Source of the DNA: an uncultured Spirochaetota bacterium
GTDB lineage: Bacteria > Spirochaetota > Spirochaetia > SZUA-6 > Fen-1364
NCBI GenBank assembly: GCA_963820525.1
Contig: CAWGAA010000002.1
Span: forward strand, 352,001-416,000
Reading direction: 5' to 3'
DNA: 64,000 nucleotides
The notes below the pieces were generated by a model. It did no database searches, was not told where the DNA came from, and was given only the letters and a program-made list of their open reading frames with translations. Position 1 is the stretch's first letter, and each line of letters starts with the position of its first letter. Positions 2,375-27,000 of this stretch are shown here, in pieces. The translations under genes and the position numbers were made by a program.

Positions 2375-2863
2375 CTATAAAAGCCTTGAGAGAATATCGG
2401 CGGGAACGCTTTCACGGAGCCGGGGATAGGCTTCAATAATGCGGGCTATATCCGCCAGGTCTTTCTGCCGTTTGCTGCCCCGTCTTTCGGGATCCGAAGC
2501 CGCCCAGACTTTGCCCCGTAATACGTCCTCTATATCAGCGACGCTCATAACGCGTCCAAGCACTTCCTGTTTTCGCGCGTTCCCGATGAAGCCGGCGTAT
2601 TTGCGGTCCGTTTGTATCTGCACTCGGAGCTCCGATCCCGGAAGAGAGATGTTCAGGCTATGGGGGAAGGAAACGACCTTGAACAAGCTTCCCAATGATC
2701 GGGACAAATCTTCCATATTCTCGACCGCCACTACCACGTCGAGATCCAGGCTCACCAGGGGCTCGACGTATGCATTTACCGCCTGACCTCCGATGACGCA
2801 ATAGGGAATCTTTTTCTCTTCGAGGAAGCTGAGAAAGATGTCAAGAAAATCGCTCGTGTCCAT
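2375..2863 (-). CDS. Nucleotidyltransferase-fold protein (AbiEii/AbiGii-like)
   Basis: VIGGQAV...SLDLDVVV (GG + DxD) and C-terminal KRQKDLADI; start re-set to ATG 2863, 162 aa. Confidence 0.75.
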   Translation of the reverse strand: MDTSDFLDIFLSFLEEKKIPYCVIGGQAVNAYVEPLVSLDLDVVVAVENMEDLSRSLGSLFKVVSFPHSLNISLPGSELRVQIQTDRKYAGFIGNARKQEVLGRVMSVADIEDVLRGKVWAASDPERRGSKRQKDLADIARIIEAYPRLRESVPADILSRLL

Positions 2864-3067
2864 TGTCACGATTCGCCTAAAGGTGGAAGCGAGCATGCCG
2901 GTTTCATTTGACCTCCGTGCAGTATCATAAGACGAGGCAGAGGAAGGATCAAGCGTGATATAGCTGCTCTGCGGCTGCCGCCGTTTTGAGAAGCGTCGGT
3001 GCAATGGAATAGGGGCGTCCGACCGCGTCGCGGTGCCTGGCCGCGCGTGCAGGTGCTCCCAATAGGT

Positions 3068-3096
3068 TTGACCACGGTGAGATCTCCGTATAGCCT
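3068..3096 (+). promoter_or_regulatory. sigma70-type promoter, probably leaderless transcript
   Basis: TTGACC (3068-3073), 17 nt, TAGCCT (3091-3096); ATG 7 nt later with no SD. Confidence 0.5.
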
Positions 3097-3103
3097 ACGC
3101 AAC

Positions 3104-4855
3104 ATGAACGCCGCCAGTAGCTTCCCTCCTCTTCGGATCATTGAAACTCTCAACGCATGCGCCTCCACGTCACGGATTCTCGCTTCCTTCGACGAGACGC
3201 TCTTGAAGTGGGCGGACAACGAAGAAAGCATGTATGAGCCGTTCCTCTGGCAGCTCGAGGAGCATGCGGATCTAGTGGGCTCGCTCACCGAAGAATGGGT
3301 TCACGCCACGGCCAATCAGTACGTAGCCGGAAAGTTATGCTCGGGCGGGCCCCTTCTTCTGCGCTGCATCCAGAGTCTTGGAAGCTCCCTCAAACCTGAT
3401 GCCTCCCGCCTGCTCGCTTCGTTCCTTGATACACCATGGAGGTACGCGCTTTTGAGCGTGAAGGGCGTGATCGCGGATACGCTTTTCTCCGTGCACGATT
3501 ATTTTTCAGGAGAAGAGCTTCTCCTCCAATCCGACAGTCTGGCGCACCTGAATAAGAGGGGAGTGCCGCTCGTTCTCACCCTGCTTTTCAACAACGGCCA
3601 TTGTTTTCAGACCTATGGGCCGCTGCACGCGCATATCGGTTTCGAGCCGTTCGATTTTCTCTTTTTCGCCCGGATGCTCGACTCCCGTCTGGCCGAGAGG
3701 AAAGGGCTTGGCGCTTGCATGGCACAGAACCCCATCCCTTTCTTTTTGCTTGATTGCGCTTCCCAGGTTCCTCCAATGGCCCACAATGGGAAGAGGGTTG
3801 TCTATTGCTTTCACTCGCTCAAGGCTCCCGGCTTCGATCTCGGAACTCTGCGCTCGCGCGGTCATTTCACCACAGAGAGCCGGGAATCAATGACGCGCCT
3901 CTGCCTGGACGGAAAGGACTCCCCATTCGATCTCGCACACGTCTATTACGACGGGAAGAACAGAGTTCTCGCCGTTCATACTTCGGGGATGGAAAACTAT
4001 GGCAGGCTCCGGGACCTTATTCTATCCGATATCGAGCTCCCCGAGCAGCCGTTCTGGATGTCCAGCGCGAATATGACCGCCACGGCCGGCCACGTTCTGA
4101 AAATGAAAGAACCCGAGGATGGCTTTTCGAGCGCGTTCGAAGAAGAGCCGACTCCGAAGGAAACGAAAGACCTTGAAACCATGAACGCCTTCATGCGGGA
4201 AGCGGCCGACCGTTCCAACTACGGTTTACCGATTTCCTACGAAGAGCTCGCTAGAAAACATGGTATCCCGCTTGAGACGGCCCGACAGGTACAAAAAATG
4301 ATGGATCGACAAGGGAAACGATTCTTCATTTCTCTCAAAGGGGGAATCCCGGGCTTCTCTCCGCCTCCTCCCGCCGTCAGAATGAAGATGAAGGGTCCGC
4401 TCGCTGAATCCGAGCTGTTTGTTTTCTCCTCCAGCGATCGCTCGCGGGAGCTGTTTCATGAGCACGATGCCGGTTTTACGGCCCTCGCCCGCACCGTGGG
4501 TAGAGAAGCTCCCGACTTTCAAGAAATGCCGGCCATCGTAGACGATCTCAGCCTGAAGCATTGGGTCGCGACCGACTCGACCATAGTCGCCTACTCGTTC
4601 ATTCTCTTCCTGGCGGCAGGAGAGGATTTCAAGCCGGCTGATGACTACGCTACCGAGATCCTGCGTCTTTTCTGGCAGGTCCTCATTCCGAACAAAGGGA
4701 AAAAGAGCATCCAGCGTTTTCTGGACAAGTACACGTCTTATTGCCAAAAGATCCTTGCCCCTGCCGGGCTTGTCGAGACCAAAGTGGGATCGGAGGGCAT
4801 GTGCCTCGCAAGGCGTACGCGGTTCTTCGAGGAGTGGGTGCAAATTGCCAAGTAG
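3104..4855 (+). CDS. Hypothetical protein (583 aa), internal HTH-like segment
   Basis: Long ORF with globular composition; ISYEELARKHGIPLETARQV resembles a helix-turn-helix. Start uncertain. Confidence 0.75.
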   Translation: MNAASSFPPLRIIETLNACASTSRILASFDETLLKWADNEESMYEPFLWQLEEHADLVGSLTEEWVHATANQYVAGKLCSGGPLLLRCIQSLGSSLKPDASRLLASFLDTPWRYALLSVKGVIADTLFSVHDYFSGEELLLQSDSLAHLNKRGVPLVLTLLFNNGHCFQTYGPLHAHIGFEPFDFLFFARMLDSRLAERKGLGACMAQNPIPFFLLDCASQVPPMAHNGKRVVYCFHSLKAPGFDLGTLRSRGHFTTESRESMTRLCLDGKDSPFDLAHVYYDGKNRVLAVHTSGMENYGRLRDLILSDIELPEQPFWMSSANMTATAGHVLKMKEPEDGFSSAFEEEPTPKETKDLETMNAFMREAADRSNYGLPISYEELARKHGIPLETARQVQKMMDRQGKRFFISLKGGIPGFSPPPPAVRMKMKGPLAESELFVFSSSDRSRELFHEHDAGFTALARTVGREAPDFQEMPAIVDDLSLKHWVATDSTIVAYSFILFLAAGEDFKPADDYATEILRLFWQVLIPNKGKKSIQRFLDKYTSYCQKILAPAGLVETKVGSEGMCLARRTRFFEEWVQIAK

Positions 4856-4953: not shown

Positions 4954-7900
4954 ATGGATCGGATTCAAAAAGGCAGCATCATCAGGGGCCCCGCAACCCC
5001 CGAGCCAGTTGAGGTCAAGCTTGTCGAAAAGGTGGGCGGCTATCTTCACATAGTCGGTGTGGGTACTCTTTCGGGGAACCATTCCGATTTCCTCATCGCG
5101 GCGGAAGATATGGACTCATACTCTTCTGATAACGCAGAGAAAGCTTTCTCTGAGGAAGCGTGGAAGGTGTTCCTGGGATTGGAGACGATCCGGTACCGCT
5201 TCGCATCTCTCTACGATCCACTGCTCGCGGTCAACACATCGAAGATCGATCCCCTGCCTCATCAAATCGAGGCCGTCTACGGCTACATTCTCAAGCTTCC
5301 CCGGATCCGTTTCCTGATCGCGGACGATCCCGGCGCCGGAAAGACGATCATGGCCGGGCTTGTCATCAAGGAGCTCAAGCTGCGGCGGGTGATCGACCGC
5401 GTTCTCATTGTCTGTCCCGGGCACCTGAAGGACCAGTGGAGAAGGGAATTATCCGAACGGTTCGAAGAGAAGTTCATCGTGATCGACAGGGGCATAATGG
5501 ATTCGCTCTACGGTGAGAACGCATGGAACAGGGAGAAGCAAATCATCACCTCCATCGACTTCGCCAAACGCGACGAGATATTGCCGTCTATCGCCGCGGC
5601 GCACTTCGACTTGGTCATCGTGGATGAAGCGCACAAGATGAGCGCGTACCAATACGGCGACAAGACCGAAAAGACCGGCCGCTACCGTCTGGGGGAAACG
5701 CTCTCCAGGATCTCGGATCACTATCTCTTCCTCACGGCGACCCCGCACCGTGGGGATCCGGAAAGCTTCCGGATGTTCCTGGACCTGCTGGAGCAGGGGT
5801 TCTTCGCCACGAGCGAGATGGTGCACGAATCCGTCCGCAACCGCGACAACCCTCTCTTCATACGAAGGATCAAGGAAGACCTGAAGGATTTCGAGGGCAA
5901 GCCCCTGTTCCTTCCGCGCTACGTGAAAACGATCGCATACGACCTGGGCACGAGATCGCCGGCGGAAAAGGACCTTTACAATGCCCTGTCCGAATACGTC
6001 GTGACGCAATACAACCTCGCTCTCTCGCGCGACAAGAAAAGAAACATCGCATTCGCCCTTGTCATCCTCCAGCGCAGGCTCGCCTCCAGCAGCTACGCCC
6101 TCCTGAAATCCCTGGAACGCAGGAAAGGACGCCTGGAGGAGCTTCTTAAAGGTGCGCAGGAAAGGTTGAGCTTCTCGGGGGAAATGCTCGATTTGGATTC
6201 CGCGGAAGATCTGAGCGAGGAGGAGAGGTGGCGGGAGGAGGAGATCTGGGAGTCCCTCAGCGTGGCGGAGAACAGGCAAGAGCTGGAGGATGAAATCTCC
6301 ACGCTGGAAAACCTCATTTCTCAGGCAAGGGCGATCATCCATGGGGAGAAAGAGATCAAGCTCATGGAGCTGAAAAAAACCGTCCACCGTCTGGAGACGG
6401 AAAATCCGAAGAAGGAGGAGCGAAAGATCCTGATTTTCACGGAATCGAGGGACACCCTGGATTACCTGGAAAGAAAGATGAAGGAATGGGGGTTCACGAC
6501 CAACGTCATCCACGGCGGCATGAAACTGGAGGAAAGGGTCCGGGCGGAAAGCGTGTTCAAGAACGAGACGGACATCCTGGTGGCCACCGAAGCGGCGGGG
6601 GAAGGCATCAACCTCCAGTTCTGCAACCTCATGATCAACTACGATCTTCCATGGAACCCCAACCGCCTGGAACAGAGGATGGGCCGCATCCACAGGTACG
6701 GCCAGACGCGGGAAGTGTGGGTATTCAATCTCGTGGCCGAGGATACCCGCGAGGGCAGGGTGCTGAAGAAGCTTTTCGAAAAGCTTGACGAGATCAGGAA
6801 GGCGATGGGAAGCGACAAGGTCTTCGACGTGATCAGCGACGTTCTCCCCAACGTCAACCTCTCCCAGCTCATGATGGACGCCGCGGCCAGGACCCGCAGC
6901 GTCGACGACATAATCGGGGAGATGGACGTGACCGTGGACGAGGAGTACATCCGCCGGGTCAAGGAGGAGCTGGGGGAGAGCCTCGCCACGCACTTCATCG
7001 ACTACACCCGGATAAAGGAGATGGCGAGAAAGGCCGAGGAATATCGCCTGATTCCTGAGTACACGGAAAACTACTTCCGCAAGGCTTTCCAGAGGGCTGG
7101 CGGGAGCGTCAGGGAGACGCGGGAAGGTTTTCTCGCGGTGGATTCCGTGCCGCACGCCATCCGCAAGGCGAGCGAGCGGGACGAAATCCTTAAGTCTTTC
7201 GGCGCCGTGCTCAAGCGGTACCCCAAAATGACGTTCGACAAGAAGGTGGCCTTCCACCATGCCGACGCTGAGTTTGTTTCCTTCGGTCACCCTCTTTTCG
7301 AGTCCGTCATGGCCTGGGTGGAGGCCGAGCTTATGGACTCGGTGCAGAACGGCGCGGTTTTCCTGGATCCGGACAGGCTCATGGACGGGCACAACCTTTT
7401 CTATGAGGGAGAGATCAGAGACGGCAATGGTGAGACCGCGGGCAAGAGGCTTTTCGCCTTGTATGCGAGGGACGATGACATGAAAGAAGTCCCTCCCTCC
7501 TTGCTTTGGGACCTCGCGGAAGGCACGGCGGCCGACCGCAATGAAACGCTGGACAGGGAAGGCCTGAAGTCGAGGGCTTCCGAAGCGGTGATAGCCTCTC
7601 TGGAAAAATACAGAACGGAGATCTCGAACGAACGTACGCGCCAGGCCGCGATCAAGAAGAAGTACGGCGTCAAATCTCTGGAGACCCTCATCCTGAAGCT
7701 CGACGGCGAGCTGATCCCGCTGAAAGACAGGCAGATGCGGGGTGAGAACGTGGACCTCGCGATACGGAACAAGGAGGAGAGAAAGGCGGAATACGAGCGC
7801 GCGTTGGCGGATCTCGAGCGCTTCATCGTGCGGGAGCAGAACCTCGTGATGTCAATGCCCCGGTTTCGCGGGATCGTGAGGGTGAAGCCCGGGACAAAGC

Positions 7901-8298
7901 CCGTTACCGACGCCGCCGCGGATCCCGAGGTGGAAAAGGCGGGCATGGACGCCGCGATGAGCTACGAGCGCAAAGAGGGAAGGGAGCCGGAGGACGTGTC
8001 GAGCGAGAACCTCGGGTTCGACATCCGGTCCAGGGAAAAGACCGGCGGATGCCGCTATATCGAAGTGAAGGCGAGGTCTGATGTGGGAGCGGTGGCCCTC
8101 ACCCAGAACGAATGGTTCAAGGCAAAGCGCTTCGGTGACGACTACTATCTCTACGCCGTCATGAACGCAAAGAAATTGCCGCAGCTGTTCCCGATCCGAA
8201 ACCCCGCATCCACGCTCCGCGCCGATGAAAGAGTAGAGGTGGTGCGCTACGTGATCGGGGCGGACCAGATTACGGAGAAAGCGGGGAAAAGGGATTGA
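4954..8298 (+). CDS. SNF2-family helicase/translocase with C-terminal DUF3883 (PD-(D/E)XK) nuclease domain
   Basis: [44 protein letters not shown]-terminal GFDIRS...YIEVKAR...LTQNEW. Confidence 0.93.
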
Positions 8299-11009
8299 CC
8301 GAAGCGCCGCGAGGCCCCCGTTTCATCGAAGAATCCTTTCCCGTCAAGGAAGTGGGCGCGGAGTCCGCGCGGGAGAAGAACATCCGGCACGGCCACATCT
8401 CCACGCTTCACATCTGGTGGGCGCGCCGCCCTCTGGCCTCTTCCAGGGCGACGGTGTATGGGGCCCTGGTGCCGACGCCGGAGACGCCCGATGACGTACG
8501 GAACACCAGGCAATTCATCATCGATTTCTCCAAGTGGGAGAACTCCCTCAATCCAACCATGATTCAAAGGGCCCGCCGGGACATCCTTGCGGCCGGCGGC
8601 GGAAGGTCTCCCCGGGTGCTCGATCCGTTCGGCGGCGGGGGAGCCATTCCCCTTGAAGCGCTCAGGCTGGGATGCGAGACGTACTCGGGAGACCTCAATC
8701 CCGTGGCGGTGCTGATCCAGAAATGCACCCTGGAGTACCCGCAAAAGTTCGGAAAGCAGGGCCCGGTCGTGCAGGAAGGCGAGGTGATCGGAAGCGCGCA
8801 CAAGCATGCTGTCAACGCGGAGAACAGGCTCCTGGAGGACGTGAAGAGATGGTCCGGCAGGGTCCTGAAGGAAGCGAAAGCCGGGCTTTCCCGATTCTAC
8901 CCCTCCGATCCCGACGGCTCAACTCCTGTTGGCTATATCTGGGCGCGGACCATCCCCTGCCAGAATCCCGCCTGCGGGGCGGAGATTCCCCTCATGCGCC
9001 AGTTCTGGCTGGCAAAGACGTCAAGTAAAAAGGTGAGCCTGTTCCCCTTCGTCAAGGCCGGCAGCGTCCTTTTCCGCATCGTGGGGGACGCATACAAGGA
9101 GATGCCTGCAGGCTTCGACCCGGAGGAGGGAACGGTTTCCCGGGCCGTGGCGAGGTGCCCGGTCTGCGGGTCCATGTCGGACGACACGACAACACGAAAG
9201 CTATTCCAGGAAGGGAAAGCCGGGCAGAGGATGATCGCCGTTGTCCTACTTAAGGAAGGACGGACGGGAAAAAGGTACAGGATATCGACTGAAGAGGATG
9301 AGGCCGTGTTCCTGGGTGCGGAAAAGGCGCTGGAGGGGAAGAGCGCCCTGCTCCGGGAAGAGTGGGGCATGGAGCCTGTACCGGATGAGCCGCTTCCGCC
9401 CGCGCGCACGCTCGGATTTAGAATACAGAACTACGCCATGAACACCTGGGGCGACCTGTTCAACTCACGGCAGAAGCTGGCGCTCATCATCTTTGCGGAC
9501 GCGGTGCGCCGCGCGTACAATGGGATGATCGCCGAGGGGTATGAGGCGGAGTACGCCAGAGCGGTAGTGGGGTATTTAGGAATATTGGTGGATAGGCTGG
9601 CAGATAAATCCGGCGTTCTTGTAAGGTATAACTCAGCTGCAGAGAAAATTGAAGGTGTCTTTGGTCGTCAGGCACTCCCAATGTTATGGGATTATGTTGA
9701 GACCAATCCCTTCACGGATGTCGGCTGGCACAACATGCAGGAGTGGATCGAACAGATCATCCAGCACTGCTCCCAAATCGAGCAGCCGGCGCACGTAACT
9801 CAATCTTCCGCAATCGCCCTGCCGTACGCCGACTCGTTCTTTGACGCCGTGTTCACCGATCCTCCCTACTACGATAATGTTCCCTATTCCTATCTCTCCG
9901 ATTTCTTCTACGTCTGGCTCAAGCGGACGATCGGAGACGCCTTTCCGGAGCTTTTTTCCACGCCCCTCACGCCCAAGAAAAGCGAGATCGTCGCGTACTC
10001 GGAAGGCGTCGGAGGATTCGAGGAGGGCAAGCGCCGGTTCGAGGAGATGCTGAAAAAATCGTTTCAGGAAATCCACAGGGTATTGAAACCCGACGGCGTT
10101 TCCCTGATCGTGTATGCCCACAAGTCCACGGCCGGATGGGAGACCCTCATCAACTCGCTCCTCGATTCGGGCCTCATCATGACGGGCGCCTGGCCGATCA
10201 ACACGGAGAAAGTAGGAAGGATGCGCTCTCAAGAATCCGCGGCCCTCGCATCCTCCATATACATCGTATGCCGCAAGATGACCCGCAAGCCCACGGGGAT
10301 TTACAGCGAAGTGAAGGAGGCGCTCGTCAATCACCTCGATCTAAAATTGGAGAAGCTCTGGGGAGAGGGAATCGGCGGGGCGGATTTCTTCATCGCGGCA
10401 ATCGGCTCGGCCATAGAAGTGTTCGGGAAGTTCGAGAAGGTCATCGACTTCGAGGGCACCACTGTGCGCGCGGACAGGCTGCTGGAGGACATTCGCCTGA
10501 TCGTCACCGATTTCGCGGTCCGCCGAATATTGAAAAACGGCTTTGCGGGGGAAATAACCGACCTGACGCGGTTCTACGTCCTCTTCCGCTGGGAGTTCGG
10601 AGAGTCGAGGGTCGGGTTCGACGAGGCGCGGAAGCTCGCCCAGAGCTGCGGAATCGATCTGGCCCTGGAATGGAACCGGGGCGGATTCATAATGAAGGAG
10701 AAAGAGCTCATACGCGTCATCGGCCCCCAGGAAAGGAAAGCGGAGAAGCTGAAGGACTCCACGGAGCTCATCGACGTGCTCCACCGCTGCCTGCTCCTGT
10801 GGGAGAAGAGCCGGAGGGACGAGATGATCCAGGCCCTCACGGAGTCCGGTTTCGGCAAGAGCGAGGCTTTCTTCCGCGTGGCCCAGGCGGTCTCTGAGAC
10901 GCTGCCGACGGAGAGCAGGGAGAAGAAGCTCCTGGACGGGTTCCTCTCGGGAAGGGAGAGGCTTCAGGAAACCGCGCGGCGAAGCTCTCGGCAGGGGGAG
11001 CTTTTCTAG
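8295..11009 (+). CDS. DUF1156 adenine-specific DNA methyltransferase with Zn ribbon
   Basis: [18 protein letters not shown], motif [19 protein letters not shown]...CPVCG, motif [13 protein letters not shown] start overlaps helicase stop. Confidence 0.92.
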
Positions 11010-11039
11010 GGTAGTATGACGGCAGTCGAGGTATAAGGG

Positions 11040-12254
11040 ATGAATGTTATCGCCAAACCGGCGCGGACCGTACCGAGGATCGAATACCTTCGTGTGCAGA
11101 ACTACCGTGCCTTGTGCGACATCGAACTCAAGGGATTGAAGCCTCTCACTGTTTTTCTCGGGCCTAATGGCAGTGGGAAATCCACGGTCTTCGATGTGTT
11201 CGCTTTCCTGGCTGAGTGTTTCACGATCGGGCTTCGTCGGGCATGGGACAAGCGGGGGCGCTTCAAGGAGCTTCGCACCAGAGGCCAGGAAGGACCCATC
11301 GTCATTGAGCTGAAATACAAGGAGAGCCCGAGCATTCCGACAATCACCTACCACATGGCGATAGACGAAGGCGACGGCGGGCCGTATATGGCCGAGGAAT
11401 GGCTCAAATGGAAAAGACAGAGCTATGGTAAGCCTTTCAATTTCCTCGATTTCCGGGGAGGTGCGGGAGAAGTCATTTCCGGGGAACTGCCCGACGAGAC
11501 GGACAATCGGGTATCCGAAAAACTCGAATCTCCCGAGCTTCTCGCCGTGAGCACACTCGGACAGCTTGCGAAGCATCCCCGCGTGAGCGCTCTGAGAAGG
11601 TTCATTACGGGATGGCATCTGTCGTATCTGAGCGCGGACGCCACACGCGGCCATCCCGAAGCCGGTCCTCAGGAGCGGCTTTCAACGACGGGGGACAACC
11701 TGCCAAACGTTATTCAGTATCTCAAGGAACAGCATCCTGAACGTCTTGAGCGGATATTAAAGACCCTTTCCTCAAGGATTCCCCGTTTGGAGAAAGTCAG
11801 CGCGGAAACCATGCAGGACGGAACCCTTCTCCTCCAGATCAAGGACGCTCCCTTCGAACGGCCGGTGCTTGCCCGTTTCGCTTCGGACGGCACGTTGAAA
11901 ATGCTCTCATACCTGACGCTCCTCTACGATCCAACTCCGCCGGAGCTTATCGGCATCGAGGAGCCCGAGAACCATCTCCATCCCAGACTTCTTCCGGAGC
12001 TTGCCGAGGAATGTAGAATCGCATCGAGCGGGACACAGCTTCTGATTACCACCCATTCTCCGTTTTTCGTGAACGGCCTGCAACCCGAAGAGTTGTGGGT
12101 CTTATTCCGTGACGAAAAAGGCTTTACGGGAGCGCGCTGCGCCGCGGACATGAAGGGGGTCAAGGAGTTTATGGAGGAAGGCGCCCAGCTTGGCTATTTG
12201 TGGATGGAAAGCCATTTCGAAGTCGGGGATCCGCTCGCTAAACCGAAGGACTGA
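11040..12254 (+). CDS. AAA_15/AAA_21-type ABC ATPase (defence-associated)
   Basis: VQNYRAL, Walker A GPNGSGKS, signature ASDGTLK, Walker [14 protein letters not shown]-loop ITTHSP; no TM helices. Confidence 0.92.
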
Positions 12255-12262
12255 CCGGGCGC

Positions 12263-12892
12263 ATGAGAATCGAAGTGATAGTCGAAGAACCTTCCGCCGA
12301 AGCCGCCTTGCAGAATATCTTGCCGAAAATGATTCCGGTTGGATCAAGCTTCAAGATTCATGTGCATCAGGGCAAGCAGGACCTGCTCTCAAAGCTTGTG
12401 AGCCGCCTACGCGCGTACCGCAAGCACATTGCCAAAGATGACAGGCTTATGGTTCTCGTGGACAGAGACAGGGAGAATTGCCACAGCTTGAAGAAAAAAA
12501 TGGAAAACGCAGCAGAAAAGGCGGGGCTTGTATCGAAATCGAAAGCGAAAGGGAAGACCTTTCACGTCATGAACAGGCTCGCAATTGAGGAGTTGGAGGC
12601 CTGGTTTTTCGGGGATCCGCAGGCTATTTCGGAAGCATTCCCGAAAATACCGGTATCCGTCTTCAATAGAGAGCCATATCGGATTCCCGATTCTATCAAA
12701 GGAGGAACGGCGGAAGCCCTCGAGAGGGTGCTCAAGCAGTACCGATACTATCCCAGCGGCATGCCCAAGATCGAGGTTGCTCGCGCGATCTCCTCACGCA
12801 TGGATCCTTCGCGTAACATTTCGAAAAGCTTCAAAGTATTCAAGAAAGGGATCGAAGTCCTCACGGGCTGTAAGGAAGCAATCCATGATTGA
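12263..12892 (+). CDS. DUF4276-like TOPRIM-fold protein, putative nuclease effector
   Basis: IEVIVEEPSAE (conserved Glu), LVDRD (DxD), AIEELEAWFFGD, C-terminal N.SKSF. Confidence 0.82.
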   Translation: MRIEVIVEEPSAEAALQNILPKMIPVGSSFKIHVHQGKQDLLSKLVSRLRAYRKHIAKDDRLMVLVDRDRENCHSLKKKMENAAEKAGLVSKSKAKGKTFHVMNRLAIEELEAWFFGDPQAISEAFPKIPVSVFNREPYRIPDSIKGGTAEALERVLKQYRYYPSGMPKIEVARAISSRMDPSRNISKSFKVFKKGIEVLTGCKEAIHD

Positions 12893-13205
12893 CCGCCAGG
12901 AAATGCTGGATAAAGCCATACGCATTATCGTTTCAGCGTCGGATCCCGATAGAATCATCCTGTTCGGATCTCGCGCGCGGGGCGAGGTTTTCGCCGGCGG
13001 CGATTACGATCTTTTCGTTCTGAAGAAGGGCATGCGGGATCCACGGAGGGTCGCGCAGAAAATCTACATGGGTCTCGCCGGCTTCGGCGCTCCGGTCGAC
13101 GTCATTGTGGAAGACGAGGAGAAATACGAGCGGCTGAAAGACGATCCGTACCTCATCTACCACGCGATCGCGGCGGAAGGCAAAGTCATATATGAAAAAT
13201 CGTGA
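12885..13205 (+). CDS. Minimal nucleotidyltransferase (MNT) antitoxin
   Basis: IILFGSRARGEVFAGGDYDLFV (GSx10DxD), PVDVIV, EGKVIYE; ATG 12885 with AAGGA upstream, 106 aa. Confidence 0.9.
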   Translation: MIDRQEMLDKAIRIIVSASDPDRIILFGSRARGEVFAGGDYDLFVLKKGMRDPRRVAQKIYMGLAGFGAPVDVIVEDEEKYERLKDDPYLIYHAIAAEGKVIYEKS

Positions 13206-13587
13206 ACACGCGGTTGAATGGCTGCACAGGGCGAGAAGCAGCCTTCTTCAGGCCAGGCTTGGCAGATCGGAGCCTGGGATACTCATTGAAGATCTCTGTT
13301 ATCACGCGCAGCAGGCGGTCGAAAAGGCCCTGAAAGCGGTCTGTATTCATATAGGAATAGATGTGCCCAAGGTTCACGACATTGGGTTTTTAATCGATCT
13401 GCTCGCCGCCAATTCCATGCATCTTCCCGAAGAGCTCAACATCGCGCGAACGCTGACGGTCTATGCCGTCACCACCCGCTATCCCGGCGATTACCCTCCC
13501 GTGTCCGAGGCGGATTACGCTTCAGCGATTGAGACGGCGGAGAATGTAGTCCGCTGGGCTTCCCGGGAAATCGAGGGAGCTTTATGA
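13192..13587 (+). CDS. HEPN domain protein (COG2250-type)
   Basis: CYHAQQAVEKALKA, PKVHDI, TTRYPG; paired with MNT. Confidence 0.9.
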   Translation: MKNREHAVEWLHRARSSLLQARLGRSEPGILIEDLCYHAQQAVEKALKAVCIHIGIDVPKVHDIGFLIDLLAANSMHLPEELNIARTLTVYAVTTRYPGDYPPVSEADYASAIETAENVVRWASREIEGAL

Positions 13588-16100
13588 AGCCTTTCCACAC
13601 TGTTGCCGTTCCTCACCGGGATATCCTCGAAGGCCGTCTCACGATGGACGTTTTCGCGGCGGACCTCTGGCAGGTGTGCCGTCGCCAGGGTCCCGACGAG
13701 TACCGCGACGCGGATACCTTCTTTCGAAAGACGTTCGTCACGCAAGGGTTGCAGAACCTTCTTGATATCGTGGAGAAGAGGCTTGCGGGCCGGGGCGGGG
13801 ATCCCGTCATACAGATCCAGACGCCTTTCGGCGGGGGGAAGACCCATTCGCTCATCGCGATGTACCACAAGGCCGTTGAATGGCGCGCGAAGCAGGTCGT
13901 GATGGTCGGAACGGCCCCCGGCGGACAAAAAACCCTTTGGGGGTGGCTCGAAGAGCAGCTTACGGGGAAGATCGACGCGCTTTCCGGTCCCGTATCACCC
14001 GGGAAAATCGCCCTTCTCAAGCTCCTCGAACAGCACCAGCCCGTGCTCATTCTGATGGACGAAATCCTCGAGTACGCGGTGAAGGCGGCAGGCACGAAAG
14101 TCGGAGAGAGCACTCTCGCCGCCCAGACTCTCGCCTTCATACAAGAGCTGGGAGAAACGGTGAGCGGCCTTGACAAAGCGTGTCTTGTCGTCACGATCCC
14201 TTCCAGCGTCGCTCCCCTGTACGACCAGAACGCCGAAAGGCTATTCCTGGGATTGCAGATGGTGGCGGGGCGGATCGAGAAGATCTACACCCCCATCGCC
14301 GACAGCGAAATCGCGAGCATCATCCGGAGCCGGCTTTTCAGCTCGTTCGATCAGCCGAAGGCGAAGGAGGTCGTGGACTCTTTCATCGAATACGCGGAAA
14401 GAGAAGGCATTCTTCCGTTCGGCTCGAGCGCGGGCGAATATCGCGACCGGTTTCTCGCGTCGTATCCGTTCATGCCCGAAGTGGTCGATGTTCTCTATCA
14501 GAGGTGGGGCAGCTTCGGTACTTTCCAGAGAACCCGGGGAGTGCTGAGGCTTCTCTCATTGGTCGTGCATACACTCAGGAATAGCGCCAAGACGTATATC
14601 GGTCTTTCGGACTTCGATCTGGGCAACCAGGAAATACGGCAGGAGCTGCTGAAGCATATAGGATCGGAGTTCAACAGCGTGATCGCCTCGGATATCACGG
14701 AGCCCTCCAGCGGCGCCCAAAAAGTCAACGGTTCCCTTGGAAACGCGTATCGAGGGCTGTCCCTGGGCACGAGCGCCGCGACATCGATTTTCCTCTATTC
14801 CTTTTCCGGCGGGCACGAACGGGGGGCCACGCTGGCCGAAGTTAAAAGAGCCGCGACCACCACGGAGAATCCCGCGAGCGTGGTCGCCGAGGCCGTGGAG
14901 CAGCTCAAGGCACGGCTTTTCTTCATGCAGAGCGTCGGAGAAAGACTCTTTTTTTCAAACAAGCCCAATCTCAATAAGACGCTTTTAAACCGGATCGAGA
15001 ACCTTGACGACAGCGAGGTGATCGAAGCCGAACGGGAGCTGCTCATATCGTGCCTTTCGCGCCAGAAGCTCAAGGTAACCGTCTGGCAGGATGATCCCGC
15101 TCAAATCCAGGACACCGATTCGCTTCAGCTCCTGATATTGAGAGACCGCCAGGAGGAGGTGATGAAGGACATTATTCGGAACAAGGGCCAGACTCCCCGG
15201 GTGTACGGCAACGCCCTTTTTTTCCTCTATCCCCACGACAATGAGAAAACCGCATTATCCGCAGCGCTCAAAAAAAGAATGGCGTACGAATCGATAGAGG
15301 AAGATCAGGATTTCCCGCTGACCGAGGAACAGCGACGGGAGCTCGCGAAAGTGCTGAAGAAGTGCAGGATAAGCGCGAACGAAGCGCTTCGCAGAGCGTA
15401 TCGAATGGCGGCAGTCCCGTCGAAAGACGGCTTGCGTGAAATAGACCTCGGAGTACCGACCTACGGCGAGAATAAAAACATTGACGACGGGGTATACGAC
15501 AAGCTGCGGTCGGAAGGGCTTCTGTTGGAGAACCTGGCTCCTCTGGTGATCCGTGAGAAATATCTGGCCGGAAAAGAGTATGTGAGCACCGAGGCCATTT
15601 TCCAATCCGCTCTGAAGACCCCGGGAGAACCCAGGCCAATCTCGAAATCGGCAATCGAAAAAGGAATCCGTGAAGGCGTGAAAAGCGGCCTCTTCGGCTT
15701 GGGAGAGTTGGAAGGGGTTGATGCGAAGTGTCTGTTCTTTCAGACGGAACCTTCAGTAGCGTTCGGCGGCAAGGAAGTGCTTATCTGCGACGCGAAATGC
15801 GTGGAACAGAAGAAAAGCGAGCCGATTCAAGCGCCCTTGTCTCCATCCGGAGCACCGACCGCCAAGGTGTCTTCCCACCCGCAGCCGGGTCGAAGCGGCA
15901 AAACCTCGATCGTGATATCGTTTCGAGTGCCCAAGGGCAAAGTCAGCTCCATTATGGGCGTCATGAACTACCTCCAAAGCAGGTTCGAAGGTCTGGATAT
16001 TACGTTAACAGCAAGCGGCGGCGAGATCACGCTTCAAGAATACGACGACAAAGTCATGGAAGCGTTCCGACAGGCGGGAATAGAGGTGAGAGAGGGGTGA
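13584..16100 (+). CDS. DUF499 family AAA+ ATPase
   Basis: AVPHRDILEG...FAADLW, Walker A TPFGGGKTH, Walker B VLILMDE, YPFMPE, FQRTRGVLRLL. Confidence 0.92.
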   Translation: MKPFHTVAVPHRDILEGRLTMDVFAADLWQVCRRQGPDEYRDADTFFRKTFVTQGLQNLLDIVEKRLAGRGGDPVIQIQTPFGGGKTHSLIAMYHKAVEWRAKQVVMVGTAPGGQKTLWGWLEEQLTGKIDALSGPVSPGKIALLKLLEQHQPVLILMDEILEYAVKAAGTKVGESTLAAQTLAFIQELGETVSGLDKACLVVTIPSSVAPLYDQNAERLFLGLQMVAGRIEKIYTPIADSEIASIIRSRLFSSFDQPKAKEVVDSFIEYAEREGILPFGSSAGEYRDRFLASYPFMPEVVDVLYQRWGSFGTFQRTRGVLRLLSLVVHTLRNSAKTYIGLSDFDLGNQEIRQELLKHIGSEFNSVIASDITEPSSGAQKVNGSLGNAYRGLSLGTSAATSIFLYSFSGGHERGATLAEVKRAATTTENPASVVAEAVEQLKARLFFMQSVGERLFFSNKPNLNKTLLNRIENLDDSEVIEAERELLISCLSRQKLKVTVWQDDPAQIQDTDSLQLLILRDRQEEVMKDIIRNKGQTPRVYGNALFFLYPHDNEKTALSAALKKRMAYESIEEDQDFPLTEEQRRELAKVLKKCRISANEALRRAYRMAAVPSKDGLREIDLGVPTYGENKNIDDGVYDKLRSEGLLLENLAPLVIREKYLAGKEYVSTEAIFQSALKTPGEPRPISKSAIEKGIREGVKSGLFGLGELEGVDAKCLFFQTEPSVAFGGKEVLICDAKCVEQKKSEPIQAPLSPSGAPTAKVSSHPQPGRSGKTSIVISFRVPKGKVSSIMGVMNYLQSRFEGLDITLTASGGEITLQEYDDKVMEAFRQAGIEVREG

Positions 16101-20249: not shown

Positions 20250-20322
<73 letters not shown>

Positions 20323-20439
20323 CGAGCGGCGCGCTTGGGACATCCCTGTCGTCGCCCGCCCTGATGGCCGTCCATGGATGAAGCGGGCGCTTGGGGAGTC
20401 CTTTAGGCTCGACGTGGGAAAGTATTTCTCAGTCGGCTA

Positions 20440-20469
20440 TTGACATTTTGTCGATAGTGTATGTAAATT
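20440..20469 (+). promoter_or_regulatory. Candidate sigma70 promoter for rpmG-secE-nusG
   Basis: TTGACA, 18 nt, TAAATT in an AT-rich patch. Confidence 0.5.
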
Positions 20470-20607
20470 TGTCACCCAATCCAGAGCTTGGTCGGCTGCG
20501 CGGCGCCGTTGCCTCCACCGACCTCCGACATTCGAAGGGCATGTGCCGGAAGGCAGCCGGCATCGCGGGGAGGCGACCGCGATCGTCCATCGCAACGGGA
20601 GATCCGA

Positions 20608-20784
20608 ATGGCAAAAGGCAAGGCAAAGAACCTCGAGCTCGTAGCGCTGCAGTGCAGCGTGTGCGATCGGAGGAACTATACCACCGCAAAGAACCGCAAG
20701 AACACCCAGGGCAAGCTCGAGTTCATGAAGTACTGCCGGTGGGATAGGAAGCATACTCTTCATAAGGAAGCGAAGATAAAGTAG
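20608..20784 (+). CDS. rpmG: 50S ribosomal protein L33
   Basis: ALQCSVCDRRNYTTAKNRKNTQGKLEFMKYCRWDRKHTLHKEAK; start re-set to ATG 20608. Confidence 0.97.
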   Translation: MAKGKAKNLELVALQCSVCDRRNYTTAKNRKNTQGKLEFMKYCRWDRKHTLHKEAKIK

Positions 20785-20795
20785 CAACTTGCCAT

Positions 20796-20869
20796 AGGCC
20801 AGTAGCTCCAACTGGTAGAGCGCCGGTCTCCAAAACCGGATGTTGCGGGTTCAAGTCCTGCCTGGCCTG
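20796..20869 (+). tRNA. tRNA-Trp(CCA)
   Basis: AGGCCAG/CTGGCCT acceptor, CCGGT-CTCCAAA-ACCGG anticodon arm, TTCAAGT T loop; canonical position between rpmG and secE. Confidence 0.97.
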
Positions 20870-20885
20870 AAAGCGGGAGAGGGGT

Positions 20886-21065
20886 ATGAGGAAGATCATC
20901 CTTTTTTTTCAAGAGAGTTTCGCGGAGCTGAAGAAGGTCACGTGGCCGAGCAGGGAAGAGGTCGTGTCCTCCACCAAGGTGGTGCTGGTATCTACTATTC
21001 TCATCGCGGCCATGCTGGGTATCGTCGATTTCGTCCTCTTCAAGCTCATAGACTTGATCTTCTGA
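20886..21065 (+). CDS. secE: Preprotein translocase subunit SecE
   Basis: Not in the ORF track (59 aa): MRKIILFFQESFAELKKVTWPSREEVVSSTKVVLV..., single TM helix. Confidence 0.96.
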   Translation: MRKIILFFQESFAELKKVTWPSREEVVSSTKVVLVSTILIAAMLGIVDFVLFKLIDLIF

Positions 21066-21077
21066 GCAAGGGACGGC

Positions 21078-21632
21078 ATGGCAAAGGGATGGTATGTGGT
21101 GCATACCTACTCCGGGTATGAGAACAAGGTGCAGAAGCACGTTCGAATGCTCGTCGAGAAGGGAACCCTGAAGGAGTTCGTCTTCGACGTGAAGGTGCCC
21201 TCGGAAGAAGTCGTGGAGATCAAGGACGGCAAGAAGAAGGTCTCCACGAAGAAATTCCTTCCCGGCTACATCATGGTTGAAATGGACCTTCCCGATCTGG
21301 GTTGGAAGGAAGTCTGCATGGAGATCCGAAAGATCCCCGGAGTGACGGGGTTCGTCGGGTCCCACAGAAACCAGAAGCCACAGCCCATCTCCCAGGAGGA
21401 GGCGCGGGGCATCCTCCAGAAGTCCGGCGAGATCAAGGCGGACAGGGCCCTCAAGCCCAAGCAGAGTTTTTCCGTGGGAGAGATGGTGCGCATCATCGAC
21501 GGCCCATTCGACTCGTTCACCGGAAGCATAGAAGAGGCGAACGCGGAAAAGGGCAAGCTCCGCGTCATGGTGGGTATTTTCGGGCGGTCGACGCCAGTGG
21601 AGGTTGATTTCCTCCAGGTCGAGAAGATTTGA
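21078..21632 (+). CDS. nusG: Transcription termination/antitermination factor NusG
   Basis: WYVVHTYSGYENKV, PGVTGFVG, KOW domain IFGRSTPVEV. Confidence 0.98.
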   Translation: MAKGWYVVHTYSGYENKVQKHVRMLVEKGTLKEFVFDVKVPSEEVVEIKDGKKKVSTKKFLPGYIMVEMDLPDLGWKEVCMEIRKIPGVTGFVGSHRNQKPQPISQEEARGILQKSGEIKADRALKPKQSFSVGEMVRIIDGPFDSFTGSIEEANAEKGKLRVMVGIFGRSTPVEVDFLQVEKI

Positions 21633-21715
21633 CGGGATCTTTCACGCAAACCAGGAACCCTCTCGGGACGGCGGGCAATCCGCCGCCCTGTGGCCGCGCG
21701 CATGCGCGGCCGATA

Positions 21716-21768
21716 TGGGAGCTCCCCGCGGCGTTGCGCGTTGCGCGACGGGGGAGCGATAGCACCAC
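21716..21768 (+). promoter_or_regulatory. Putative L1-binding autoregulatory mRNA leader
   Basis: TGG-GA-GCTCCCC...GGGGAGC-GATAGCA-CCA helix/asymmetric loop/helix directly before the rplK SD. Confidence 0.6.
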
Positions 21769-21783
21769 GGAGGAGGCTTAAGA

Positions 21784-22218
21784 ATGGCCAAGAAGACTGT
21801 CAAGGCTATCGTCAAGCTCCAGGTACAGGCGGGCAAAGCCACGCCGGCGCCCCCGGTCGGTCCGGCTCTCGGACCGCACGGAGTGCAGGCGGCGCAGTTC
21901 TGCCAGCAGTTCAACGAGCGGACGAAGAAGCAGGAAGAGGGCGTGCTCATTCCGGTGGTCATCACGATCTACACGGACAAGAGCTTCACCTTCATCACCA
22001 AGACCCCGCCGGCCGCGGTCCTCATCAGGAAGGCCCTCGGGCTGGAGAAGGGAAGCGGTGAGCCCAACAAGACCAAGGTCGGTGTGCTCAGCCGGGAGCA
22101 GCTTCGCGCCATCGCGCAGCAGAAGATGCCCGATCTGACGGCCAAGGACATCGAGGCGGCCATGAAGATCATCGCCGGAACCGCCCGCAGCATGGGCGTC
22201 ACGGTGGAGGGGGCCTGA
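21784..22218 (+). CDS. rplK: 50S ribosomal protein L11
   Basis: [30 protein letters not shown]. Confidence 0.98.
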
Positions 22219-22219
22219 C

Positions 22220-22909
22220 ATGGCGCACGGAAAGAAATACAGGGCGTCCCTGGCCAAGTACGACAAGGCGACGGTCTACCCCATTGAGAAGGCCGTGGAC
22301 CTGGTGAAGGAGCTTGCATTCGCCAAGTTCGACGAGACCGTCGAGGTCTCCATGAAGCTCAACATCAAGAGCAAGCACACCATCCGCGACGTGATGGCGC
22401 TGCCTCACCTCTTCGGCAGGGAGAAGAAGGTCCTCGTGTTCGCCAAGGGAGACAAGGCGGAGGAGGCGCGGAAGGCCGGAGCCGCCTTTGTCGGAGACGC
22501 CGACCTGATCGAGAAGATCAAGGGCGGCTGGCTGGATTTCGACGTCGCCGTTGCCACTCCCGACATGATGAAGGACGTCGGCAAGCTCGGCCAGATCCTG
22601 GGCCGGCGCGGGCTGATGCCCAACCCCAAGACCCAGACGGTGACCTTCAACATCAAGGAAGCCCTCGATGAGCTGAAGAAGGGCCGCGTGGAGTACCGCG
22701 CCGACAAGGGCGGGGTGGTGCACCTGGCGGTGGGAAAGATCTCCATGGAAAAGGACCAGATCAAGGAGAACGCGGTGGCGTTCATCTCCGAGGTCATCCG
22801 CCGCAGGCCTTCGGACCTCAAGGGGGACTACATCAATTCGATCGTGCTCTCCTCGACAATGAGTCCCGGCGTACGGGTATCTCCGAAGGACAAGACCTTC
22901 GTCGCGTAA
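22220..22909 (+). CDS. rplA: 50S ribosomal protein L1
   Basis: [25 protein letters not shown]. Confidence 0.98.
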
Positions 22910-22920
22910 GGAGCTGATAC

Positions 22921-23463
22921 ATGGCGCAAGAGACAAAGAAGATACAACCGGCAAAGCTGGAGGCGGCGGCAAAGCTGAAGGAGTTCGTCAGCGCGGCTCC
23001 CGACCTCATTTTCTCGGATTTCCGCGGGCTCAGCTTCCCCCAGATGACGGAGCTGCGGACAAAGCTGGGGGAGAAGGACGCTTCCTACCGCGTCGTGCGC
23101 AATTCGGCGGCGCGCATCGCCATAAAGGATGCGGGACTGCCCGATGCTTCGGACCTGCTGGTGGGGCCCACGGCGCTCGCCTTCCTGGGGAAGGACCCGG
23201 GGGCGGCGGCCAAGGTGCTGCTGGATTTCGCCAGGGGGGCTCCCCTGAAGGTCAAGGGAGGGGTCATCGGGGGTAAGCGCTTCAGCTCCGCCGAGATCGA
23301 GGTCCTTTCGCGGCTGCCCAGCAGGCAGCAGCTCATTGCCATGCTGATGGGCGCCATGAATGCGCCCCTCATGAACATGATGTACGTGATGAACGGGGTC
23401 ACCTCGAAGCTCGTTCGCACCCTGGCGGCCGTGGCCGACCAGAAGAAGGCACAAGGCAACTAA
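22921..23463 (+). CDS. rplJ: 50S ribosomal protein L10
   Basis: DFRGLS, RVVRNS, LVGPTAL, LSRLPSRQQLI; synteny. Confidence 0.96.
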   Translation: MAQETKKIQPAKLEAAAKLKEFVSAAPDLIFSDFRGLSFPQMTELRTKLGEKDASYRVVRNSAARIAIKDAGLPDASDLLVGPTALAFLGKDPGAAAKVLLDFARGAPLKVKGGVIGGKRFSSAEIEVLSRLPSRQQLIAMLMGAMNAPLMNMMYVMNGVTSKLVRTLAAVADQKKAQGN

Positions 23464-23534
23464 GGCAACTAGCGGGAACCAGTCTTCGCATACCCTGCCA
23501 GCTGGTACCGCATAAACAAGGAAGGAGAAGATAA

Positions 23535-23924
23535 ATGGCGGCACTTACAAAGGACCAGATCCTCGATGCAATCGCCGGAATGACGGTGCTCGAGGTCTCC
23601 GAGCTCGTGAAAGCGATGGAGGAGAAATTCGGGGTTACCGCGGCGGCGCCGGTGGCGGTCGCGGCGGCAGGCCCCGCCCAGGCAGCGGGCCCCGCGGCCG
23701 CTGAGGAGAAGACGGAGTTCACCGTCGTCCTCAAGAGCTTCGACGATACGAAGAAGATCCCCGTCATCAAAGAGGTGAGGGGGATCACGGGGCTCGGGCT
23801 GAAGGAAGCGAAGGATCTCGTGGAGGCGGGCAACAAGATGTTGAAAGAGAATGTCTCCAAAGAGGAAGCCGCGAAGATCAAGCAGCAGCTCGAGGCAGCC
23901 GGCGCGGTCGTTGAGATTCAGTAA
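23535..23924 (+). CDS. rplL: 50S ribosomal protein L7/L12
   Basis: [44 protein letters not shown]. Confidence 0.98.
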
Positions 23925-23965
23925 TTCCGCGCGGCCGCGCACGTATTCTGTAGACTCAAGTAAAA

Positions 23966-24001
23966 ACCACCGGAGAGGCGGCCTTCAGGTGGTCTATTCT
24001 T
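23966..24001 (+). terminator. Candidate attenuator hairpin between rplL and rpoB
   Basis: ACCACC...GGTGGT stem with inner GC pairs, followed by a weak T-rich tail (CTATTCTT). Confidence 0.4.
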
Positions 24002-24017
24002 GGCCGGGGGGGCGCGA

Positions 24018-27000
24018 ATGATTCTCGACAAGAGCAAAAAGATAAGTCGTATCGTTTTCGGCAGGGGCTACGAGGATGTCATGGAGATTCCCAACCTCAT
24101 CGACATCCAGCTCTTCTCCTACGAGAGGTTTCTCCAGAGGAAAACCCTGCAGAAGGCGGAACCCCCGTTGAAGCAGGGGCTGGAGGAGGTGTTTCTCTCC
24201 ACCTTCCCCATCGAGAGCCCCAACGGCGACATGATGCTGGAGTACCAGGGCTATTCGCTGGACGAACATAACATCAAGTTTTCCGAGCTCGCCTGCAAGC
24301 AGAAGGGGCTCACCTTCGCCATCCCGTTGAAGGCGAAGATCAACCTCATCTTCCTCAATACGGGAGAGATCAGGCAGAAAGAGATCTACATGGGGGACAT
24401 CCCCATCATGACGGACAAGGGCACCTTCGTCATCAACGGCGCCGAGCGCGTCGTGGTGAGCCAGATCCACAGGTCCCCCGGCGTCATCTTCTCTCACGAG
24501 AAGGGGGTGTACTCGTCCCGGATCATCCCCTACCGCGGCTCCTGGCTCGAGTTCGAGATCGACCAGAAAAAAGAGCTGATCTACGCCAAGATCGACCGGA
24601 AGAAGAGGATCCTGGCAACGATATTCCTTCGCGCCCTCGGGCATGAGAGCCGCGAATCGATCATCGAGCTTTTCTACAAGACGGAGAAGGCCAAGGTGAG
24701 CGACTCGCGGGAGGCGCGCGACAAGGTTGTGGGACGCAACTTCGCCCGCGACGTCGTGGTCCAGGAAGGAGAGGTCTCCAAGAAGCTCTACCGCGCCGGG
24801 GACAAGATACACCCTCACGACGTGGACGAGCTCACCCATGTCGGGGTGAAGGAGATCGAGCTCATCGATTTCGATCACGATGAGTCCCTCCATTCCGCCA
24901 TCATCCTGAACTGCTTCGAGCGCGAAGAGATGAAGTTCTCCAAGGAGGACCCCGAGCACGACGAGATCTCCAAGGACGAGGCGATCCTCCGGGTCTACTC
25001 CATCATCAAGCCGGGAGAGCCCATCACGATAGAGAACGCGGAGAAGGACCTCCACTCCATGTTCTTCTCCTCGCGCCGCTATGACCTCGGGCGCGTCGGC
25101 CGCTACAAGCTGAACAAGAAGTTCGACTACAAGGAGATCGTGAAGACCCATACCTTGATACAGGAGGACATCATCAACACGATGACCTGGCTCATCCAGG
25201 TGTACATCGGAGAGATGAACGTCGACGACATCGACCACCTGGGAAACAGGAGGGTCCGCTCCGTGGGCGAGCTTCTCACCAACCAGCTCAAGGTGGCCTT
25301 CACCCGCATGGAGAGGATCGCCAAGGAGAGGATGTCGCTGAAGGAAGCCGACACGATCAAGCCGCAGGACCTCATCTCCATAAAGCCCATCGTGGCCACG
25401 ATCAAGGAGTTCTTCGGCTCCTCCCAGCTCTCCCAGTTCATGGACCAGGTGAATCCGCTGGCCGAGCTCACCCACAAGCGCAGGCTCAACGCCCTGGGGC
25501 CGGGCGGCCTTTCGCGCGACCGCGCCGGGTTCGAGGTGCGCGATGTTCACTACACGCACTACGGCAGGATGTGCCCCATCGAGACGCCGGAAGGACCGAA
25601 CATCGGGCTGATCGTTTCGCTTGCAAACTACACCCGGGTCAACGAGTACGGCTTTCTCGAGACGCCCTACAGAAAAGTCGTGAAGGGCAAGGTCACCGAC
25701 CAGATCGAGTATCTCTCCGCAATGGACGAGGAGCGCTACTTCATCGCCCAGGCAAACGCGGCCCTTTCTCCCAAGGGAGAGTTCCTGGAAAAGCAGATTC
25801 CGGTGCGAAAGGGCGGAGACTACATCACCCGCCCCCCCGAGGACATCCAGTATATGGACGTCTCGCCCAAGCAGGTCATCTCCGTATCGGCCTCCCTCAT
25901 CCCCTTCCTGGAGCACGACGACGCAAACCGCGCCCTCATGGGCTCCAACATGCAGCGCCAGGCCGTGCCCCTGATCCAGCCCGAGCCGCCCCGCGTGGGA
26001 ACGGGCATGGAGGCGAGAACCGCCTACGACTCGGGGGTCATGGTGCTGGCCAAGCGGGCCGGGACGGTTACGTACGTCACGTCTCTTGAAGTTCACGTCA
26101 AGCCGGACGAGGCCCGGCGCGACAACGACCTCTACGTATTACAAAAATACCAGCGCACCAACCAGGATACCTGCTACAACCAGAAACCCATCGTCTCCGT
26201 GGGCCAGCACCTGGACTCCGGAGCGGTGATCGCGGACGGCCCGGCAACCTACCAGGGGGAGCTCGCCCTCGGCCGGAACCTCCTGTGCGCGTTCATGCCG
26301 TGGAACGGCTACAACTACGAGGACGCCATCCTCATCTCGGAAAAGGTCGTTCAGGACGACCTTTTCAGCTCCATCCACATAAAGGAGTTCTCCGTCGAGG
26401 TGAGGGAGACCAAGCTGGGGCCCGAGAAGATCACCCGCGACATCCCCAACACCAACGAGCACGCCTTCGAGCAGCTGGACGATGAAGGGATCATCCGGGT
26501 GGGCGCCATGGTCAAGGCAGGCTCCATCCTTGTGGGAAAGGTCACCCCCAAGAGCGAGACCGACTCCACGCCGGAGTTCAAGCTCCTGAACTCGATCTTC
26601 GGAGAGAAGGCCAAGGAGGTGCGCGACACCTCCCTGCGCGTGCCCCATGGAGTGGAGGGCACCATCATCGACGTGCAGCGTCTCAGGCGCGCAAACGGCG
26701 ATGAGCTGGATCCCGGCGTCGAGGAGGTGGTGAAAGTCCTCATCGCGGCCAAGCGGAAGCTCCAGGAGGGAGACAAGCTGGCGGGGCGGCACGGGAACAA
26801 GGGCGTCGTGGCCCGCGTGCTCCCCATAGAAGAGATGCCGTACATGGAAGACGGCACCCCCATCGACATCGTGTTGAATCCCCTGGGCGTTCCCTCGCGT
26901 ATGAACCTGGGGCAGATCATGGAGACGGAGCTGGGATGGGCGGGCTCGGCCCTCGACGAATGGTATTCCACGCCTGTCTTCCAGTCCGCATCCAACGAGA

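Follow-up and report, generated by a model that had tools for sequence, protein, structure and literature searches.

The restriction-like antiphage system of Gao 2020, reportedly a validated cassette of DUF499, DUF3780, DUF1156 and nuclease/helicase genes, is presumably the one also called the Type-2 BREX-related (BR) system, to judge by the names of the PADLOC and NCBIfam models. A second system, Hma (helicase-nuclease, DNA methylase, ATPase), was first named by Payne 2021 (PMC8565338), and its proteins are the DUF3883-containing HmaA, HmaB with DUF1156, and HmaC with DUF499 (Liu 2024, PMC11232893). In the latter study, HmaA suffices to block phage T4, acting as a Mn-dependent nickase through NOV_C, whereas passage of T4 through a host expressing HmaB made no difference; every Halomonas locus has a two-gene AAA_21 pair in the hmaB-hmaC interval. 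Hma has been renamed Type-1 BR and kept apart from Type-2 BR, whose defining features are DUF3780, present in 98% of taxa, and an HKD nuclease at the N-terminus (PMC12839542). Embedded genes were counted in 931 of 1,485 Hma systems, with 376 cassettes, by Payne 2024 (10.1101/2024.01.29.577857), where HEC-01 is described as an ABC ATPase plus TOPRIM and conferred no defense; in a cold-seep study (10.1101/2024.09.26.614923), one HEC-01 was protective against one phage or more. A role as backup suicide effectors in BR loci has been proposed for ATPase-TOPRIM and HEPN(-MNT) modules, and fusions of HEPN and MNT in BREX/BR loci are noted in the accessible part of the same text (PMC12839542). Finally, Yao 2020 (PMC7641770) defined class II HEPN/MNT pairs, whose toxin-antitoxin status is said there to need validation.

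We analyzed a window of 64,000 nucleotides (the whole stretch of DNA under study) from an uncultured Spirochaetota bacterium. Positions 4954-16100 hold seven open reading frames, all on the + strand, and their coordinates are exactly those of an initial annotation made from the letters of the window. Four junctions overlap, at 8295-8298 (4 bp), 12885-12892 (8 bp), 13192-13205 (14 bp) and 13584-13587 (4 bp), while the remaining intergenic gaps measure 30 bp (hmaB/HEC-01A) and 8 bp (HEC-01A/HEC-01B). A six-codon open reading frame (11016-11036) lies inside the 30-bp gap. The Pfam calls of the seven genes all exceed the curated cut-offs and are, in order, SNF2/Helicase_C/NOV_C, DUF1156, AAA_21, DUF4276, NTP_transf_2/Polbeta, HEPN PF05168 and DUF499; we take DUF3883 to be the earlier name of NOV_C (PF13020). 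PADLOC, which the initial annotation had proposed as a check, returned the catalogued HmaA, HmaB and HmaC together with HEC-01A and HEC-01B. The seven genes are single-copy in the genome, except for one weak helicase-domain match (tblastn, 1e-6), and the genome has two further, distant PF05168 genes.

The operon starts 98 bp after a gene of 618 aa (2999-4855, +; GC3 of 0.67) that has no Pfam, PADLOC or NCBIfam match and whose nearest ESM Atlas cluster, a lead only (score 0.89), is a hypothetical protein of 619 aa found most often in Spirochaetota. On the other strand, at 2375-3004 (-), lies a small nucleotidyltransferase-like gene with a weak PADLOC AbiEii match (3e-4); a homologue 51% identical to it is found 1.6 kb downstream of hmaC in a related locus (L014:5843-6364). 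At its other end, the operon is separated by 41 bp from an ABC permease gene of convergent orientation, and about 4 kb downstream (20250-27515) there is a block of tRNA-Thr, tRNA-Trp and ribosomal-protein/rpoB genes, presumably rpmG-nusG-rplK-rplA-rplJ-rplL-rpoB to judge by their translations. A scan for internal promoters and terminators gave 5 and 16 matches against 5.0 and 15.1 expected, i.e., chance level, and the same scan called no promoter-like site within the cargo or ahead of hmaA.

The first gene, hmaA (4954-8298, +), encodes an SNF2 helicase of 1114 aa with a C-terminal NOV_C PD-(D/E)XK nuclease domain (residues 993-1080 in Pfam), and the PADLOC HmaA model matches it at 1.3e-205 over residues 2-1075. 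The helicase motifs GAGKT127, DEAH224 and QRMGRIHR574 can be read in its sequence, as can the nuclease residues D1023, E1037, K1039 and E1053, which are equated with the catalytic residues of the Halomonas protein by motif only. The second gene, hmaB (8295-11009, +; 904 aa), whose TTG start overlaps the stop of hmaA, encodes a DUF1156 methyltransferase (domain at the N-terminus, residues 15-72 in Pfam) of predicted N6-adenine type, with the motifs DPFGGGG110 and DPPY522 and a PADLOC HmaB match of 4.3e-131. The last gene, hmaC (13584-16100, +; 838 aa), encodes a DUF499 AAA+ ATPase with the motifs GGGKT83 and MDE158 and a PADLOC HmaC match of 1.9e-111. DUF499 is its sole Pfam match; HEPN_Swt1 is present in distant homologues, and the protein is a member of a compact clade, about 830-855 aa in length, without the Swt1-HEPN fusion. 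In the helicase, nuclease, methylase and ATPase alike, these motifs are intact. In wetland runs, single low-depth contigs skip parts of hmaB (8856-10708) and hmaA (5529-7555) (X5) and part of hmaC (15295-15561) (X3, X5); related strains may thus carry degraded copies of Hma.

We identify the core from these matches as an Hma, alias Type-1 BR, system, and the restriction-like defense scaffold that the initial annotation saw here thus stands, with Hma models matching all three core genes. The gene order hmaA-hmaB-hmaC, the SNF2 helicase with NOV_C, the DUF1156 and DUF499 genes, the lack of DUF3780 and the insertion of extra genes between core genes are all as in described Hma systems; the differences are the compact HmaC without an N-terminal Swt1-HEPN and the absence of Septu between hmaA and hmaB. 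With the system of Gao 2020 the locus shares the DUF499 ATPase, the DUF1156 methylase and the SNF2 helicase. However, the DUF3780-type PADLOC models match weakly (1.6e-31, 2.1e-37 and 1.1e-35), and the E-values of the full-length Hma models are better than theirs by 76-174 orders of magnitude. The NCBIfam anti-phage equivalogs fall far under their cut-offs (138/1100, 169/1000 and 155/1200 bits), the first of them, NF042964, covering the helicase part only. As first noted, no DUF3780 was found by Pfam in any of the seven genes; a whole-genome search with PF12635 gave no match, and neither did its control searches. Likewise, the helicase has no PLD match in Pfam that would point to an HKD/PLD nuclease at its N-terminus. 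Three features had been listed as departures from the system of Gao 2020, namely the lack of DUF3780, a PD-(D/E)XK nuclease at the C-terminus and the gene order; all three are standard for Hma.

Between hmaB and hmaC lie four cargo genes. The first two match HEC-01. HEC-01A (11040-12254, +) encodes an ABC ATPase of 404 aa with an AAA_21 domain, a full-length PADLOC HEC-01A match of 6.1e-168, Walker A at residue 41, and the motifs SDG282, IEEPE306 and THS338. HEC-01B (12263-12892, +; 209 aa) follows it directly and encodes a predicted TOPRIM nuclease, with matches to DUF4276 (1.2e-27) and to the PADLOC HEC-01B model (1.9e-82, likewise full-length). DUF4276 has been placed in TOPRIM (PMC12065111), and sequence motifs point to E8/E9 and DRD67-69 as putative TOPRIM residues; a sequence match for HEC-01B was not found in the PDB. 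The pair shares with the HEC-01 of Payne 2024 its composition and its place inside Hma, and no difference was found. It also resembles PARIS (AriA/AriB; PMC11464382) in combining an ABC ATPase with a separate, here predicted, TOPRIM gene; unlike in PARIS, where the partner is DUF4435, it is DUF4276 here, and the PADLOC AriA match is 7e-30 versus 6e-168 for HEC-01A.

The next two genes are, from their sequences, a class II MNT-HEPN pair, since a PF01909 gene adjoins a PF05168 gene without RX4HXY. The MNT gene (12885-13205, +) encodes a minimal nucleotidyltransferase of 106 aa, with NTP_transf_2/Polbeta over the cut-off and GSx10DxD at residues 28-42; its NCBIfam MntA score of 29 bits is under the cut-off of 60, and it weakly matches the PADLOC model PDC-S09. 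The HEPN gene (13192-13587, +) encodes a class II protein of 131 aa (PF05168, 1e-23), with TT1696 and TM0613 as relatives in the PDB. The RNase motif Rx4-6H (RX4HXY) is absent from its printed sequence, in which TRYP is present, and Q40, Q41, E44, K45, H62, R96 and Y97 are invariant in the four copies found in such slots. The pair agrees with the class II definition of Yao 2020 (a PF05168 HEPN without RX4HXY, preceded by an MNT that has GSx10DxD) and differs from it in being nested in Hma, immediately before hmaC. With the class I, type VII HepT/MntA it has GSx10DxD in common, whereas its HEPN lacks RX4HXY and belongs to PF05168, not PF01934. No published test of class II HEPN-MNT function was found in a literature search that covered few subscription journals. 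An origin of the HEPN gene by splitting off from the Swt1-HEPN fusion was rejected, the best E-value in pairwise BLASTP being 3.0 and the Pfam families being different.

To assess the diversity of the slot, we collected 26 loci by HmaC searches and dropped four of them, two short and partial (L011, L026) and two with no upstream gene (L003, L006), leaving 22. Among the 17 loci with both hmaB and hmaC, the slot is empty in eight and filled with varied cargo in nine, which bears out the variable slot between methylase and ATPase proposed initially. The types of cargo recur as well. A class II HEPN stands immediately before hmaC, overlapping it by 4 bp, in 3 of the 22 loci (L009, L020, L021), or in four if a deleted copy (L007) is counted, and an MNT- or HEPN-type gene occupies the slot in six. 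Three loci (L012, L013, L024) have an ABC ATPase that is distant from HEC-01A and comes with a small partner. The two kinds of cargo occur together in none of the 22 related loci; stacked cargo was seen in a same-order genome (L089), where hmaB is followed by GmrSD/Schlafen, AAA_21, DUF4276 and DUF499. L007 and L020 share about 99% identity, but L007 is missing about 320 nt of the HEPN, with the MNT intact (L007:5579-5950 vs L020:1-475), a pattern of the toxin being lost first seen in this one case. The 4-bp overlap with hmaC is also made by other cargo or by hmaB itself (L008, L012, L013, L018, L024).

In a tree of HmaC (20 rows, residues 1-350, quick method, close relatives only, with L003, L011 and L022-L026 left out), the four HEPN-bearing Hma loci do not form one clade: four changes are counted, of which the starred branches force at least three. 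Hence, a single origin of the HEPN-hmaC junction is unsupported by this tree. The HEPN tree (24 rows; L062 and L065 removed for internal stops, L027 without a match) is unresolved. Further variants of the arrangement were seen. Short copies of the 5' end of hmaB (L012:2502-2783, L013:3019-3279), 73-79% identical to residues 9-64 in the window, look like insertion scars; each is followed by an ATPase pair and then by the full hmaB. In one region (L088, G059:C1:1018000-1037999), two tandem hmaB-like genes, with a small open reading frame and an ABC ATPase between them, are followed by a DUF499 gene, with no HmaA match across its 20 kb. In all, six 20-kb regions (L081, L084-L086, L088, L089) have hmaB and hmaC with no HmaA match at 1e-5, and the genomes concerned (G037, G052, G056, G059), which belong to a single family of the same order, each have several DUF499 genes.

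Both cargo modules also occur free-standing, away from Hma. The HEPN was matched in 21 of the 301 genomes of a phylum sample, the window's own included; at the 21 non-self HEPN loci, no Hma gene was found within about 1.5 kb, some flanks being cut by contig ends, and an MNT accompanies the HEPN in 20. The relative of highest identity (52%, L051) is among the free-standing ones. For HEC-01A, no Hma gene was found in the 14-20 kb around two homologues (L082, L083). The MNT-HEPN pair is likely mobile. Among 60 relatives, a close HmaC is found in G041 only, where it is fragmented. HEC-01A is matched at 1e-30 in 5 of 36 genomes from the same order and in none of the 24 from the same family. Many of these genomes are incomplete, but the distribution fits horizontal gain. 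The GC3 of the cargo is 0.60-0.68 (0.65 for HEC-01A) and that of hmaA and hmaB is 0.77-0.79. Composition fails to separate cargo cleanly from core, because hmaC, at 0.70, is close to the cargo. Relaxed searches found no core-gene scars at the cargo borders better than an E-value of 0.01.

The cargo DNA is near-identical in contigs of all four public DNA runs examined. The contigs of one run, possibly the window's own source, span the HEC-01A/B, HEC-01B/MNT and MNT/HEPN junctions, which argues against an assembly artefact there. In these four runs, out of 15 listed, no joint skipping the cargo was seen, though contigs indicate presence and not absence.

We consider it very likely that this is an intact Hma operon whose slot holds HEC-01 and a class II MNT-HEPN pair, probably acquired separately, as parallel modules sharing a promoter. 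HmaA would be the main effector, and the NOV_C nuclease at its C-terminus would nick phage DNA as in the Halomonas homologue. The predicted roles of HmaB and HmaC are m6A marking of self DNA and assembly of the scanning complex, respectively. By analogy with PARIS (PMC11464382), HEC-01 is likely a self-contained PARIS/OLD-like unit, the ATPase of which would keep the TOPRIM nuclease inactive and free it upon a phage trigger. The MNT-HEPN pair would most likely be a mobile toxin-antitoxin-like passenger that uses the operon promoter and translational coupling. The cargo modules would thereby add defense in parallel, not as one coupled machine. Some observations sit less easily with this account. 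The recurrence of the class II pair before hmaC may reflect selection over hitch-hiking, the cargo borders carry no scars and hmaC approaches the cargo in GC3, and no defense by HEC-01 was seen in the available text of Payne 2024. The description of the inserts as abortive effectors is unproven, given the mixed record of HEC-01 across two studies and a HEPN of class II without the RNase motif. So is a methylation-based first line for Hma, weakened by the T4 results of Liu 2024, where HmaB left susceptibility unchanged and HmaA defended alone.

For the second cargo module only, a plausible though less likely alternative is that it is a neutral two-subunit nucleotidyltransferase, the MNT being catalytic and the HEPN binding the substrate, with no role as toxin-antitoxin or in defense. 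This would suit class II HEPNs, which lack the RNase motif and whose status awaits validation (Yao 2020, PMC7641770); a substrate-binding model is mentioned in PMC11586414, and the MNT-like candidate PDC-S09, one of those assayed in the cold-seep study, was not among the protective systems in the available text. However, L007 has lost the HEPN and kept the MNT, in a single case, and a Legionella HEPN cleaves RNA independently of Rx4H through a Q44/E47-Mg site (PMC11586414). The invariant Q41/E44 resembles that Gln/Glu site by spacing only and is a lead.

Two readings that give the cargo a closer tie to the core are both improbable in our judgment. In one, a guard model, the cargo would be coupled to the core of Hma: HEC-01 would detect phage inhibitors directed at Hma, in the way that PARIS detects Ocr, and the class II HEPN would replace the fused Swt1-HEPN and be released when HmaC or the MNT is disturbed. 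It is consistent with the PARIS precedent, with an HmaC that lacks a fusion present in 1370 of 2446 Type-1 taxa (PMC12839542), with MNT- or HEPN-type genes in 6 of 22 slots, and with the class II HEPN abutting hmaC on separate HmaC branches. Against it, the slot is empty in 8 of 17 close relatives and 16 of 22 loci have no MNT- or HEPN-type gene, the 4-bp overlap is not specific to the HEPN, the HEPN has neither similarity to the fused Swt1-HEPN nor Rx4-6H, and its top-identity relative stands free of Hma. In the other, which we regard as equally doubtful, the compact HmaC clade without Swt1-HEPN would have repeatedly recruited class II MNT-HEPN pairs before hmaC as a stand-in suicide effector, the HEPN cutting RNA through a Q41/E44-metal site and being silenced by AMPylation of the invariant Tyr97; if true, this would give the abundant class II modules an anti-phage role. 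Far less credible still is a rearranged Gao 2020 (Type-2 BR) system that lost DUF3780 and swapped its nuclease, a derivation from the system that the initial annotation took as its reference: despite the three shared gene types and Gao-type matches of 1e-31 to 1e-37, it is contradicted by the far better fit of the Hma models, by the missing Type-2 hallmarks and by the separate clades of the three DUF499 types (PMC12839542), and we reject it.

Whether the architecture was already catalogued has a divided answer. Publications already cover the scaffold, its slot, HEC-01 and the idea of layered backup, and the discovery value of the locus is therefore small. The exact pairing of HEC-01 with a class II MNT-HEPN is the only part not found elsewhere: it is absent from the related loci and from the available main-text literature, and supplementary cassette lists may include it. 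The locus offers a compact, intact setting in which to ask whether HEC-01, with its mixed results alone, works better when embedded in Hma, and whether MNT-HEPN pairs of class II serve as toxin-antitoxin or defense modules at all.
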